Shown here: positions 17,165 through 58,939 of the stretch, one piece after another
Layout of the letters: each line of letters starts with the position of its first letter
How positions within the stretch are numbered: the first letter of the stretch is position 1
IMG/VR virus record: IMGVR_UViG_3300010368_000009
Coordinates: 1 to 64,000 of that record
Source: a virus
Strand: one strand, 5' to 3'
Length of the DNA: 64,000 nucleotides
Position numbers and translations under genes: made by a program
The notes under the pieces: model-generated
Databases searched by the model: none
What the model was told of the DNA's origin: nothing
What the model saw: the letters and a program-made list of their open reading frames with translations, nothing else

Positions 17165-17520
17165 TGGTTATAAGTAAGTTCATGAAAGAACTTACTCTTG
17201 CAGTTCGACACGATAATAATCTAGCCTTTGCGGAATTTGATGAAGATGGTAACATCTTACATTGGAAGGTGAAGACTCAAGCAAAGTTCATAGAAGAATC
17301 ACTTGGTCGAGAATTACCGTACACATGGGTATTGGTCGTTGGCAAAGAAGAAAAAGATCAAACCATCATCTGTGAAGTTTTAGAGACTTTTCCAATGGAC
17401 GAGTATGGTGATACAATTAATATCCTAAACGAGCCGATGTTCCAGTTACAAGCAAGCGAGTTACTAATATCATATATGAAAGATCATAGATGTGATGTAT
17501 CAGCTGAAACTATTAATTGA
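17161..17520 (+). CDS. Hypothetical protein
   Basis: ATGA overlap. Confidence 0.6.
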   Translation: MMVISKFMKELTLAVRHDNNLAFAEFDEDGNILHWKVKTQAKFIEESLGRELPYTWVLVVGKEEKDQTIICEVLETFPMDEYGDTINILNEPMFQLQASELLISYMKDHRCDVSAETIN

Positions 17521-17556: not shown

Positions 17557-17633
17557 GGCTGGTTAGCTTAATTGGTCAAAGTCGGAGCCTCTAAAACTCC
17601 CAGATATGGGTTCAAGTCCCATACCAGCCACCA
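17557..17633 (+). tRNA. Amber suppressor tRNA (anticodon CTA)
   Basis: GGCTGGT/ACCAGCC acceptor with ACCA; anticodon loop CTCTAAA (CTA at 17591-17593); T arm ATGGG-TTCAAGT-CCCAT; own TTGACA promoter. Confidence 0.85.
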
Positions 17634-55888: not shown

Positions 55889-55924
55889 CGTTCCCCCAGA
55901 CGTTATGTTGACGGTTGCATCGGA

Positions 55925-55958
55925 GAATGGCTCTTGGAAACAAGGGCCATTCTTTTTA
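55925..55958 (+). terminator. Intrinsic terminator
   Basis: GAATGGCTCTTG-gaaa-CAAGGGCCATTC followed by a T tract. Confidence 0.75.
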
Positions 55959-56017
55959 TGTAAACTTTGAAATATTTTTATTGACTCTATTGGTGATTTG
56001 CCTATAAGTAACATGAT

Positions 56018-56093
56018 GCGGATGTAGCTCAGTTGGCAGAGCGACAGATTTCCAATCTGTATGTCGTCGGTTCGAACCCGTCCATCCGCTCCA
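56018..56093 (+). tRNA. tRNA-Gly(TCC)
   Basis: Loop TTTCCAA, GCGGATG acceptor, TCCA end. Confidence 0.93.
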
Positions 56094-56099
56094 AGATTT

Positions 56100-56177
56100 G
56101 GTGCTGTAGCTCAGTTGGGAGAGCGCCACGCTCATAACGTGGGTCAGTCATCGGTTCGAGTCCGATCAGCACTACCA
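56100..56177 (+). tRNA. tRNA-CAT (elongator Met or Ile2)
   Basis: Loop CTCATAA, canonical arms, ACCA end. Confidence 0.9.
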
Positions 56178-56350
56178 ATTCCATCGAAAGATGGAAACAT
56201 TAACTTGCGGTTGCTACAGTTCCTCACCTGAAGAGATAGGCCGGTAGCATTAAATTAAATGGATGCGTTCAGCCGTATTTTATACTTGACTTATAGAAAT
56301 TCAACCTGTATACAGATAATACAGAAACAACATACAAGGTAATAAACATC

Positions 56351-56497
56351 ATGGCAAAGCACGCATCTGGTAATACTCATGTCGTTGGTGTACGTAAGCG
56401 CACCAGCATTGGTAACTCCTTCCGTTCGGGCGACAAGTCCAAGAATGCGAAAAGCCGTAATGGTTCTCGCTTCACACGTGGTCAAGGTCGTCCGTGA
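56351..56497 (+). CDS. 48-aa basic peptide ending RGQGRP (not in the ORF track)
   Basis: Own TTGACT promoter and AAGG RBS; MAKHASGNTHVVGVRKRTSIGNSFRSGDKSKNAKSRNGSRFTRGQGRP. Confidence 0.65.
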   Translation: MAKHASGNTHVVGVRKRTSIGNSFRSGDKSKNAKSRNGSRFTRGQGRP

Positions 56498-56516
56498 ATA
56501 AAATGCAGTAACGGGG

Positions 56517-56625
56517 TTGACTTTATATAGATCGCCCTGTATAGTATAAATCATCGGCGGGGAGTTACTTCCTAGTAACTCCCCGCCGAAAGAATTGAAT
56601 GCTCTTTGACATTGTTGTGTGAAGC
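56517..56625 (+). promoter_or_regulatory. Promoter followed by an rrn-like antitermination leader (boxB hairpin, boxA, GT-rich boxC-like)
   Basis: TTGACT-17-TATAGT; perfect 16-bp hairpin at 56554-56589; TGCTCTTTGACA at 56600-56611. Confidence 0.65.
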
Positions 56626-57195
56626 TTAGAACAGCTTCCGTTGGAGCATCGGGATAGATACTCCTTGTTTAACGAAAATAAACACTGTTGTGCTATTGGC
56701 ATGGTATGATGGGTTCCGGTGTTTCATCGCAAGTTGTTCTAAAAGTTTGTTGACACAGATGCATGTGTTGTATTGGTGACCATAACCGGAGTACGGGGCG
56801 GAACTTTTACTGATCATTGCGGAATGCCTAGTTTAAATGGCGTGTGTCAAAGCCGGTGTCCCGTTTAAATCTGGGGATGTGACCGGCCTCGTCATCTTAC
56901 AAAAGAGAGTCCAAACGTTTTCTAGAAACGACAAAAACTCAGCTCTGGTGGCCACAGAGAACCGGATATTCTCTTAATAGAGATAGCTTCGGGTGACGAG
57001 ATATAGTTTTCGTGTACTGACTAGAGTGCACACAAGTTCCCTTCGGGGAAGGCATCTTATGGTGTCTTAGTGAATGGACTGACAAAAGAGAATATGGGCG
57101 GTAACCTGTAGGATCACAAATCAGTCGCCTTTACCGAGGAAAATCGGTTATTGTCATTCTGTTGGCATCACCACCAGAGTGGCTTACAGTCGGGA
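56626..57195 (+). ncRNA. Large multi-domain structured ncRNA candidate
   Basis: No credible ORF; consecutive closed helical domains and a UUCG tetraloop. Confidence 0.6.
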
Positions 57196-57197
57196 AT

Positions 57198-57326
57198 TAG
57201 TTTAGAGATGGGACGTAGCTCAATATGGTAGAGCTTCTTAATCCCGGCCACTTTGGAAAACGAACTGGTCCGGTAATGTCAAACGTTGTATGCGGGTTCG
57301 ATTCCCGTCGCCTGTCATCTAAACTA
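57198..57326 (+). ncRNA. tRNA-like element with D and T arms, expanded centre, no CCA
   Basis: TAGCTCAATATGGTAGAGC; GCGGG-TTCGATT-CCCGT; closing TAGTTTAGA/TCTAAACTA. Confidence 0.6.
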
Positions 57327-57357
57327 GCTGTTTCGTCCAAATGGACAACAATAACTA

Positions 57358-57442
57358 TGCGTGCCGACTTAGACACATAGTCCGTAATACAAATGAGTGT
57401 CTGGATACGGTTGTAATGGGTTCGACTCCCGGTAGGCATGCA
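57358..57442 (+). ncRNA. T-loop RNA with possible H-type pseudoknot
   Basis: TGCGTGCC/GGCATGCA closure; AGACAC/GTGTCT crossing CCGTA/TACGG; GGG-TTCGACT-CCC. Confidence 0.45.
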
Positions 57443-57453
57443 AATGATCTTAT

Positions 57454-57575
57454 AGTCGTTGGCTGTATTATCAGAAACAACACAAGGCCGTTGAGAATCC
57501 AGCGTGTTGTTTCTGGTAGGTGTCTAGATGGATATAGCTACCATCTAAGGAGTTCAAGTCTCTTAACGACTGCCA
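57454..57575 (+). ncRNA. CCA-ended tRNA-like RNA with 8/4 acceptor-T and a long central helix
   Basis: AGTCGTTG/TAACGACT-GCCA; T loop TTCAAGT; TTATCAGAAACAACAC/GTGTTGTTTCTGGTAG helix. Confidence 0.6.
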
Positions 57576-57736
57576 ATAATATCGAGTGAAGCACTGTCAT
57601 AACATAGTTCGCGCAGAGGCTTATTATTTCGGGCTGGTATACTGATGTGGAGTAGCGTAAGCTGACACCGATTAGTAATCAGTCAGGAATATACTCGGTA
57701 TTTTGTCAAGACAAATATACCTTATGATTATGGGGT

Positions 57737-57813
57737 TGATCGATAATGCTCAGTCTGGTAGAGCTTTCTTACAAAAACTAGGAAGGTCGTTGGTTCAAAT
57801 CCAACTCGGTCGC
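57737..57813 (+). ncRNA. Pseudo-tRNA (loop CAAAAAC, no CCA)
   Basis: D arm GCTCAGTCTGGTAGAGC; T arm GTTGG-TTCAAAT-CCAAC. Confidence 0.55.
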
Positions 57814-57821
57814 ATAAATAC

Positions 57822-57992
57822 TATCTATCAGTGCACGGGGTATGTGCACGCCTATATGTGAATCGCCCGTCCATCATCTGGTTACTGAGTAACAAGTAGG
57901 TAACAAATGGAGCAACGGGGGCAGTGAAGCAAGCGTTGAAAGTCGTCGAGGTTATGTAGACGATGGTTGGTTCGAATCCAATCTGATAGATA
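57822..57992 (+). ncRNA. Structured RNA with a terminal T arm
   Basis: TATCTATCAG/CTGATAGATA closure; TTGG-TTCGAAT-CCAA. Confidence 0.5.
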
Positions 57993-58138
57993 TAATGGTG
58001 GCGTCATCTAGGAGCGGTGAAGTGTGCGTTCCGGGTGTTGCAGGCATGCAAACCTATGCGGCAGTCCTTTTCCGAGGGCGAGTCGATTCTAGTCGTTTAA
58101 CGAGCGACATGGCACCCCATCATTAAACGAGAAACATA

Positions 58139-58939
58139 ATGTTTTGGATAGTACAAGAAGATTTATATAACGAATACAATTATGATTCGTTTCTTGATTC
58201 GTTGAAAAGAATGAATATTGATCATGTATTGGTCAAGCCAATTCCATTTACCAATACACTGGTTGATGAAGATCAAATTCATATCGATGATACCAAACCG
58301 ATAATCGTATCAGGATCAATGGGATTAGTTCGTGTGGCTCGCCGTAGAGGTTGGAAGCCCGGATCATTCCTTGATGAAGATTTCGAATTCACTCAATGGC
58401 GTGATGGCTTCGGTAAAAAACATTGTATGAATGGATGGGGCAAGGTCAGTAAATTACGGGATGCATCTTTTTCCGGTAGCGATATATTCGTTCGTCCGAC
58501 AGCTGATAATAAATCTTTCAACGGAACTATTATGAACCGGGAAGAGTTTATTTGCTGGCGTGACCATTATGCGGACATCGAACCAACCGATGAATTTCAA
58601 TTACTCCATGCTGATACAGAAATTATGTTATGTCAGCCTAAAAACATTTCGGCTGAATACAGATTCTTTATCGCTGGTGGCCAAATTCTAACCGGAAGCC
58701 TGTATTCTAGAAATAGACGCGTCCTTTATCAAGAATGTGTTGATGCAGGGCCGATAGCATTCATCAATGCAATGATCGCCATATATCAACCAGCGGAAGC
58801 ATTCGTTCTAGATATAGCTTATATTCATGGTGAGTATAAAATAATTGAAGTTAATAATTTCAATTCATCTGGTTATTATGCTTGTGATGTTCAGAAAATC
58901 ATTGACGGGGTTGAACAATTAACTTACAAGTATGAATAA
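58139..58939 (+). CDS. ATP-grasp domain protein (DUF4343/R2K-like)
   Basis: FVRPTADNKSFNG, EYRFF, FVLDIA, KIIEVNNFNSSGYY. Confidence 0.82.
   Translation: MFWIVQEDLYNEYNYDSFLDSLKRMNIDHVLVKPIPFTNTLVDEDQIHIDDTKPIIVSGSMGLVRVARRRGWKPGSFLDEDFEFTQWRDGFGKKHCMNGWGKVSKLRDASFSGSDIFVRPTADNKSFNGTIMNREEFICWRDHYADIEPTDEFQLLHADTEIMLCQPKNISAEYRFFIAGGQILTGSLYSRNRRVLYQECVDAGPIAFINAMIAIYQPAEAFVLDIAYIHGEYKIIEVNNFNSSGYYACDVQKIIDGVEQLTYKYE

Follow-up and report, generated by a model that had tools for sequence, protein, structure and literature searches.

What a phage encodes in a 1.55-kb gap that is free of open reading frames (ORFs) and adjoins its tRNA genes is the question raised by this locus. The window, i.e., the whole stretch of DNA that was analysed (64,000 nt), corresponds to the initial 64 kb of an IMG/VR virus record of 101 kb that is ~30% complete, and the stretch studied here (56626-57195) forms the opening third of the gap. 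An earlier note, made from the letters of this DNA, had proposed a ~570-nt ornate noncoding RNA (ncRNA) at this place and had pointed to GOLLD and ROOL, which are phage-encoded, many-helix structured RNAs that adjoin tRNA genes and whose function is a puzzle (PMC5737381; PMC12286853). GOLLD, ROOL, and OLE are ornate RNAs that self-associate (PMC12286853).

Genomic setting

The window contains rIIA, rIIB, ribonucleotide reductase, and NAMPT/NadV-type genes along with 16 tRNA genes, and on this gene content we regard the phage as a T4-like jumbo phage. Downstream of rIIB the order is tRNA-Gly(UCC), tRNA-Met, a promoter, a 48-aa very basic ORF, and the ORF-free 1.55 kb, and the first gene past the gap is an ATP-grasp (R2K clade) ORF at 58139-58939. 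Whether read with code 11, TAG=Q, or code 4, 56555-58135 contained no ORF of at least 90 aa. A distant blastn search with 56500-58200 returned zero matches among 50,697 cultured phage records. When rIIB was used as a single query, a close relative was not found in IMG/VR; rIIB homologues at 63-66% identity (P0002, P0003) are present in the protein database, and, among cultured phages, the rIIB matches with the best coverage are those of Erythrobacter and Citromicrobium phages, at 35% identity or less.

One usable relative was available, the complete 335-kb IMG/VR phage G001, whose rIIB is 49% identical to that of the window. Its gene order is rIIA, rIIB, tRNA-Gly(UCC), tRNA-Met, four small ORFs (which occupy the place after tRNA-Met), an ATP-grasp gene, a 47-aa basic ORF, promoters, and a boxA identical to that of the window. 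On the 3' side of this boxA are 3.6 kb without ORFs, followed by a 134-aa ORF and tRNA-Gly(GCC), both of which come after the ATP-grasp gene in the window. Relative to the RNA operon, the ATP-grasp gene itself lies 3' in the window and 5' in G001 (L002:8980-9780). The G001 operon (L161:1400-5033; G001:C1:296400-300032) comprises 3.6 kb with >15 stem-closed modules, only one of which is recognisably common to the window, suggesting a fast turnover of modules in these operons.

The extremely basic ORF of the window (56351-56497) and its G001 homologue (L002:9847-9990) are 50% identical, share the conserved segments KRTSIGNS and TRGQGRP, and, in each phage, directly precede the RNA operon. This 47-48-aa ORF matched neither a Pfam nor a PHROG family. 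We considered it as a dedicated partner of the RNA and rejected this, as among its 137 IMG/VR relatives the 80 retained loci have neither a boxA nor adjacent tRNAs.

Search for known RNA families

Rfam 15 at gathering scores reported tRNAs only. At E<10, searches of the 2.4 kb at 55900-58300, of the conserved core alone (see below), and of the G001 copy returned within the stretch a single 16-bit chance match, so the comparison with GOLLD, ROOL, and introns that the earlier note had proposed matched no family in the stretch. Neither 55900-58300 nor the core by itself matched GOLLD (RF02032), whether at gathering (150 bits, conserved 3' domain) or at E<10, and no ROOL (RF03087) match at E<10 was obtained in the window copy or the G001 copy. 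As positive controls, the same Rfam library detected GOLLD at 188-190 bits in two other contigs (L070 and L078) and a group I intron in a third (L075). No Rfam match at E<10 was obtained for group I or II introns, known ribozymes, or riboswitches, nor was a T-loop or intron signature found inside 56618-57195.

The absence of RNase P and tmRNA signatures, remarked on from the letters, also stands: bacterial RNase P RNA (types A/B, CR-I to CR-V) has no Rfam match at E<10 in the stretch, and ARAGORN finds no tmRNA in the window. The tmRNA models of Rfam gave only sub-threshold scores of 13.6 and 14.8 bits (gathering 47), and these fall outside the stretch, on a T-arm at 57292-57425. As for RNase P, ACAGAGAACCGG is superficially like CR-V while the remainder is unlike, and GAGAGUCC is not kept in G001; this candidate was rejected.

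Folding of the stretch

The local elements by which the candidate had first been recognised are all present (Table 1 gives the wider layout). They include helices 56626-56637/56731-56742 (12 bp, one G-U), 56750-56757/56843-56850 (8 bp, perfect), 56852-56857/56882-56887 (6 bp), and 56888-56895/56993-57000 (8 bp, one G-U); a TTCCC-UUCG-GGGAA hairpin at 57037-57050; the pairing GACTGA/TCAGTC (57077-82/57121-26), interleaved with CTGTA/TACAG (57106-10/57185-89); and a 10-nt repeat, ACAAAAGAGA, at 56900 and 57083. The comparison with shuffled sequence that had been asked for came out in favour of structure: on the + strand, 56618-57195 has a minimum free energy (MFE) of -193.6 kcal/mol vs. -164.1 +/- 6.7 kcal/mol for 100 dinucleotide shuffles (z -4.42), and 0/100 shuffles folded as well. 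The minus strand scored z -2.7, and 12 coding controls of 578 nt from the same window scored z -1.23 +/- 0.82 (minimum -2.58). With ORFs lacking and tRNAs adjoining, these values bear out the description of the stretch as non-coding, structured, and located beside phage tRNA genes.

The folding signal is uneven. It is carried by 56618-56752 (z -5.5), 56852-56888 (z -3.1), and 56886-57002 (z -3.2), and is weak in 56748-56852 (z -0.3), 57003-57130 (z -1.8), and 57070-57195 (z -1.7). The helices named in the earlier note correspond to stem-closed modules that follow one another, and a long-range helix closing them together is not supported. In the MFE structure, local hairpins compete with the pairings proposed as a pseudoknot, which also lack comparative support. 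RNAalifold did not give a usable consensus for the 5' part of the core.

Table 1. Features of the ORF-free gap and its leader (window coordinates)
Feature	Position	Strand	Details
sigma70-type promoter, TTGACT-17 nt-TATAGT	56517-56545	+	top promoter-like site of the region (10/12)
Perfect 16-bp G+C-rich hairpin in boxB-like position	56554-56589	+	between promoter and boxA; no U-run 3' on the + strand
boxA TGCTCTTTGACATTGTTG, then GT-rich boxC-like run	56600-56617	+	18-mer occurs once in the window
5' module, long near-perfect stem with two capping hairpins; lineage-specific	56622-56751	+	-48.7 kcal/mol, z -5.5, 0/200 shuffles; pair probabilities 0.85-0.99
Conserved core, 5' part	56762-56851	+	hairpin 56770-74/56790-94 (5 bp) with loop GGUGACC, then AAAGCCGGUG (56849-58); MFE z -0.3
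Conserved core, 3' part	56852-57002	+	hairpin 56852-56887 and multi-helix junction that holds four inner hairpins and closes with 56888-95/56993-57000
Most conserved block, CAGC-N6-GGCCAC-N3-GAACCG	56940-56964	+	hairpin loop with palindrome GGCC, then junction
3' series of six local hairpins; lineage-specific	57003-57195	+	includes C(UUCG)G at 57037-57050 and the GACUGA/UCAGUC stem; z -1.7 to -1.8
Remainder of operon, stem-closed modules	57198-58125	+	about five with a canonical T-arm beside an acceptor-like stem

Promoter and boxA leader

Sites of the type TTGAC-N17-20-TATA occur 10 times in the window, all on the + strand, vs. 3.1 expected on both strands. They include 13868, 17517, 37905, 55981, 56286, and 56517, and several stand immediately 5' of single tRNA genes, suggesting that many of the phage tRNAs are separately promoted. 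The site at 17517 is the own promoter-like site of a tRNA with the anticodon CUA (amber-reading; labelled Pyl by ARAGORN) at 17557-17633, which may be a suppressor tRNA.

In the window, boxA is restricted to the RNA operon. The 18-mer starts 55 nt past the -10 hexamer, and the 1.5 kb after it are free of ORFs; we thus find a boxA consensus soon after a promoter and at the head of an untranslated transcript, the arrangement by which an rrn-type leader is recognised. G001 has the same promoter type ahead of its boxA. The identical 18-mer was found in 12 IMG/VR contigs, G001 included, mostly 10-40 nt past a promoter and 5' of tRNAs or structured RNA. It also occurs >120 times in species-representative bacterial genomes, nearly all of them Alphaproteobacteria and often at contig ends, and the complete chromosome of a Nisaea sp. 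carries it 163 nt upstream of the 16S rRNA (L375:6077-6094). Judged by this identity, the phage leader is a copy of the alphaproteobacterial rrn leader, which leads to a prediction of host class for both the window phage and G001: the host of the window phage is probably an alphaproteobacterium. The Erythrobacter and Citromicrobium phage rIIB matches, on sequence similarity, agree weakly with this host.

The rrn antitermination complex provides the basis for an analogy in which a boxA leader makes a long untranslated transcript Rho-resistant (PMC10250234), and by this analogy we infer that the leader would confer Rho resistance on the phage operon transcript. The best leader-trailer duplex of the operon equals the shuffled mean, and a + strand terminator was not found between the RNA operon and the ATP-grasp ORF. 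Among the other contigs with the boxA 18-mer, two hold GOLLD (188-190 bits) in tRNA operons that open with the same boxA after a promoter (L078:12005-12474 and, on the minus strand, L070:1177-1643), and L075 has an operon with a tRNA that holds a group I intron. As the GOLLD operons are headed by the same boxA, the leader seems to be an expression device common to phage RNA-only operons.

A conserved core shared with G001

When compared by blastn (word 7), nhmmer, Smith-Waterman, and shared k-mers with 160 loci and with the G001 operon, the sequence showed only boxA and T-loops in common. For structure-aware searches, single-sequence covariance models were built from the MFE folds of three consecutive ~140-nt sections, R1 (56852-57002), R2 (57003-57150), and R3 (56618-56752), and run with filters off against the G001 region and six other boxA contigs (78 kb). 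R1 gave one full-length + strand match, at L161:2511-2665 inside the syntenic G001 operon, with 38 bits (E ~6e-9), whereas the next best match had 10 bits and the background in ~1.8 Mb of other loci was 13 bits or less. R2 found no homologue in G001 (best 6.7 bits), and neither did R3, whose best match in the G001 operon had 14 bits on the minus strand, with generic hairpins reaching up to 17 bits. The R2 and R3 negatives double as controls for the single-sequence model method.

In the R1 alignment of the window and G001, both partners differ in 15/47 pairs, as compared to 0-3 in slid controls (partners shifted by 1-3 columns); 93% of cells pair, and only in the + sense are G-U pairs retained. 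The alignment was fitted to the model structure and holds two sequences, so the covariation is one pairwise comparison. Identity is 56% (66/118 aligned columns), with the invariant letters clustered in the junction strands GAGAG, AAAA, CAGC, and GAACCG and in one loop, GGCCAC. The block at 56940-56964 is identical in letters and spacing in G001, while its stem changes from U-A to C-G. A conserved peptide does not account for these letters and was rejected as a candidate: the 46-aa ORFs over the core in the window and in G001 share no similarity, and the conserved letters lie in different frames.

Collinear sequence blocks lie 5' of R1 and extend the conserved core to ~56762. A 28-mer around TTGGTGACC is 19/28 identical at L161:2396, a collinear place that is also the best in the entire G001 operon (p ~0.01 operon-wide, 0.0005 in the collinear 133 nt), and AAAGCCGGTG stands just 5' of both R1 copies (L161:2494 in G001; p ~0.03). 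By eye, the hairpin with the GGUGACC loop shows two compensatory pairs between the window and G001. The conserved unit therefore measures ~240 nt in the window (56762-57002) and ~270 nt in G001, and, as R2 and R3 find nothing in G001, its flanks are lineage-specific.

Overall, the proposed ~570-nt ornate ncRNA holds up as a structured, non-coding stretch but not as a single unit, since only its central ~240 nt has a homologue in G001. Likewise, the suggested search for homologues and covariation succeeded for 56852-57002 and failed for the 5' and 3' sections. For the core, the lack of an Rfam match combined with a part that covaries with the G001 homologue is the outcome that the earlier note said would point to a new class. 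A homologue in an independent genome with compensatory changes, as expected of a new family, is represented by one sequence, that of G001.

It is conceivable, though we regard it as unlikely, that everything from boxA to the first tRNA-like module is one ornate RNA of ~570-600 nt that acts as a single molecule, with conserved and variable parts as in GOLLD. The whole 578 nt folds better than shuffled sequence, hairpins in G001, too, fill ~250 nt from the core copy to the next T-arm module, and GOLLD likewise has a variable half (PMC12286853). The MFE structure, moreover, proposes a long-range helix, 56858-65/57207-14; however, this helix overlaps the acceptor-like stem of the next module and is without comparative support, and the listed helices are local and sequential. 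Models of the 5' and 3' thirds have no counterpart in G001, and the 5' neighbour of the core differs, being a long hairpin in the window and, in G001, ~450 nt of other modules including one that is tRNA-like, between boxA and the core. On the 3' side, unrelated hairpins take up ~200-260 nt in both phages before a T-arm module is reached. We find a better fit in one antiterminated precursor that carries a chain of modules, each evolving on its own, than in a single 570-nt ornate RNA.

Further members and tRNA-like modules

The core family presently has two known members, in the window and in G001. Pattern scans of IMG/VR for the conserved block gave model-confirmed results only in G001, and in a metagenome motif scan 0/80 loci among the matches listed pass model R1. 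A pattern of TTGGTGACC followed by AAAGCCGGTG had 36 other matches, in near-identical clusters, which were rejected by inspection; their lengths are mostly multiples of three, suggesting coding genes.

Downstream of the stretch, in the ~five modules with T-arms, the D and anticodon parts are aberrant or replaced. One of the downstream modules (57737-57813) scores 29.7 bits as a tRNA and has a CAAAAAC loop, and another (~57454-57575) ends in G-CCA. The layout of the T-arm modules is like that of YrlA-type tRNA mimics, although the YrlA model is not matched. The G001 operon also has T-arm modules, one of them ~260 nt 3' of the core copy.

Interpretation and alternatives

Taken together, we consider it probable, with moderate confidence, that the stretch is part of an untranslated, boxA-led operon whose conserved ~240-nt core is a new, rare structured RNA module and functions as a stable trans-acting RNA. 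Transcription would start at the sigma70-type promoter, and the nascent RNA would present the 5' hairpin and a boxA matching the host-type rRNA leader. Because of this identity, RNA polymerase would probably be turned by NusB/NusE and their partners into the Rho-resistant, folding-friendly antitermination form known from rrn operons. The transcript is predicted to fold as a chain of modules, namely the long 5' hairpin, the core, the six small hairpins, and the tRNA-like modules, which would probably be separated by the host RNases responsible for maturing rRNA and tRNA precursors, again by analogy with rrn. The core would fold independently into the hairpin with the GGUGACC loop, the second hairpin, and the multi-helix junction, and may act through its fold and conserved loops; the 5' and 3' hairpins may be lineage-specific accessories or processing elements. 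Most likely, the core is cut out of an antiterminated precursor as a stable RNA that acts in trans, and its partner would most likely be a protein or RNA of the translation/tRNA sphere, engaged together with the neighbouring tRNA-like RNAs.

A bolder version, to which we give little weight, is that the core is the founding member of a new class of phage RNAs and acts with the tRNA-like RNAs of the operon. It might self-associate by kissing of its GGCC loop, or the GGCC loop might pair with the GGUGACC loop (5/6 complementary), and the product might be a higher-order particle or decoy directed against host tRNA/translation or against anti-phage, tRNA-targeting defences in alphaproteobacteria.

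It is similarly doubtful that the stretch is a spacer or processing scaffold without a trans function, in which the stems are entry sites for RNase III/E/P and folding insulators for the downstream tRNA-like RNAs, as in rrn leaders and spacers. A boxA leader and stem-closed architecture are indeed like those of rrn precursors (PMC10250234), the long 5' hairpin is a plausible RNase III substrate, and the flanks evolve freely. By contrast, in the core the junction and loop nucleotides are invariant and the stems covary between phages whose rIIB proteins are 49% identical and whose sequences around the core have diverged beyond recognition; a cleavage stem would need less constraint than this. 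A leader-trailer helix, moreover, was not found.

That the locus has no RNA function, and consists of decayed tRNA or intron genes or of a DNA-level element whose fold signal stems from composition or palindromes, appears very unlikely: the neighbouring modules do resemble degenerate tRNAs and the family is tiny, but folding and G-U pairs are strand-asymmetric, a promoter and boxA are dedicated to the unit, the structure-aware match with compensatory changes is highly significant, and 56618-57195 is free of T-loop and intron signatures. The least probable reading is a riboswitch- or attenuator-like cis-regulatory leader of the ATP-grasp gene. Despite the missing + strand terminator, this gene is upstream of the operon in G001, where another ~2.4 kb of non-coding modules comes after the core; neither a boxA leader nor tRNA-like modules belong to mRNA leaders, and riboswitch families are unmatched.

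Judged by this locus, jumbo phages of Alphaproteobacteria appear to run dedicated rrn-style "RNA-only" operons, and the operon described here pairs a copy of the host rRNA antitermination leader with a set of tRNA-shaped RNAs. The ~240-nt covarying core is absent from RNA catalogues; with two members, the evidence for it is thin, and its comparative boundaries and invariant loops offer targets for mutagenesis.

Comparison with known systems

The tRNA cluster of phage T4 includes small stable RNAs of unknown function (species 1 and 2, or RNAs C and D) that are co-transcribed and processed with the tRNAs. The window core resembles them as a small RNA alongside tRNA genes in a T4-type phage, a likeness by description in which a sequence relation is not expected. 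To our knowledge, T4 has no boxA leader.

The leader is closest to the bacterial rrn leader (boxB-boxA-boxC, with NusA/B/E/G, SuhB, and S4), as the window has a promoter, hairpin, boxA, and GT-rich run in the same order. Its boxA is 18/18 identical to that of the alphaproteobacterial rrn leader, and both head long untranslated, highly structured transcripts. They differ in that the rrn leader heads rRNA, whereas the window leader heads phage RNAs and has no leader-trailer helix that we could find.

With GOLLD and ROOL, the core shares no match in sequence or structure. These RNAs are 580-800 nt long, in contrast to the ~240-nt core with its two members and no proven pseudoknots, and the ROOL model (~580 nt), which has six multistem junctions as well as three pseudoknots, is unmatched by the window RNA. 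The likeness to GOLLD is one of arrangement: GOLLD env-38 lies 3' of a tRNA-Met, as does the window RNA, and GOLLD has conserved and variable halves where the window stretch has a conserved core and variable flanks. The locus thus adds a small, tractable case to the puzzle of phage RNAs beside tRNA islands, and the boxA 18-mer that heads both the GOLLD operons of L070 and L078 and the window operon ties the window RNA to GOLLD-containing operons, suggesting a common expression logic for this enigmatic group of RNAs.
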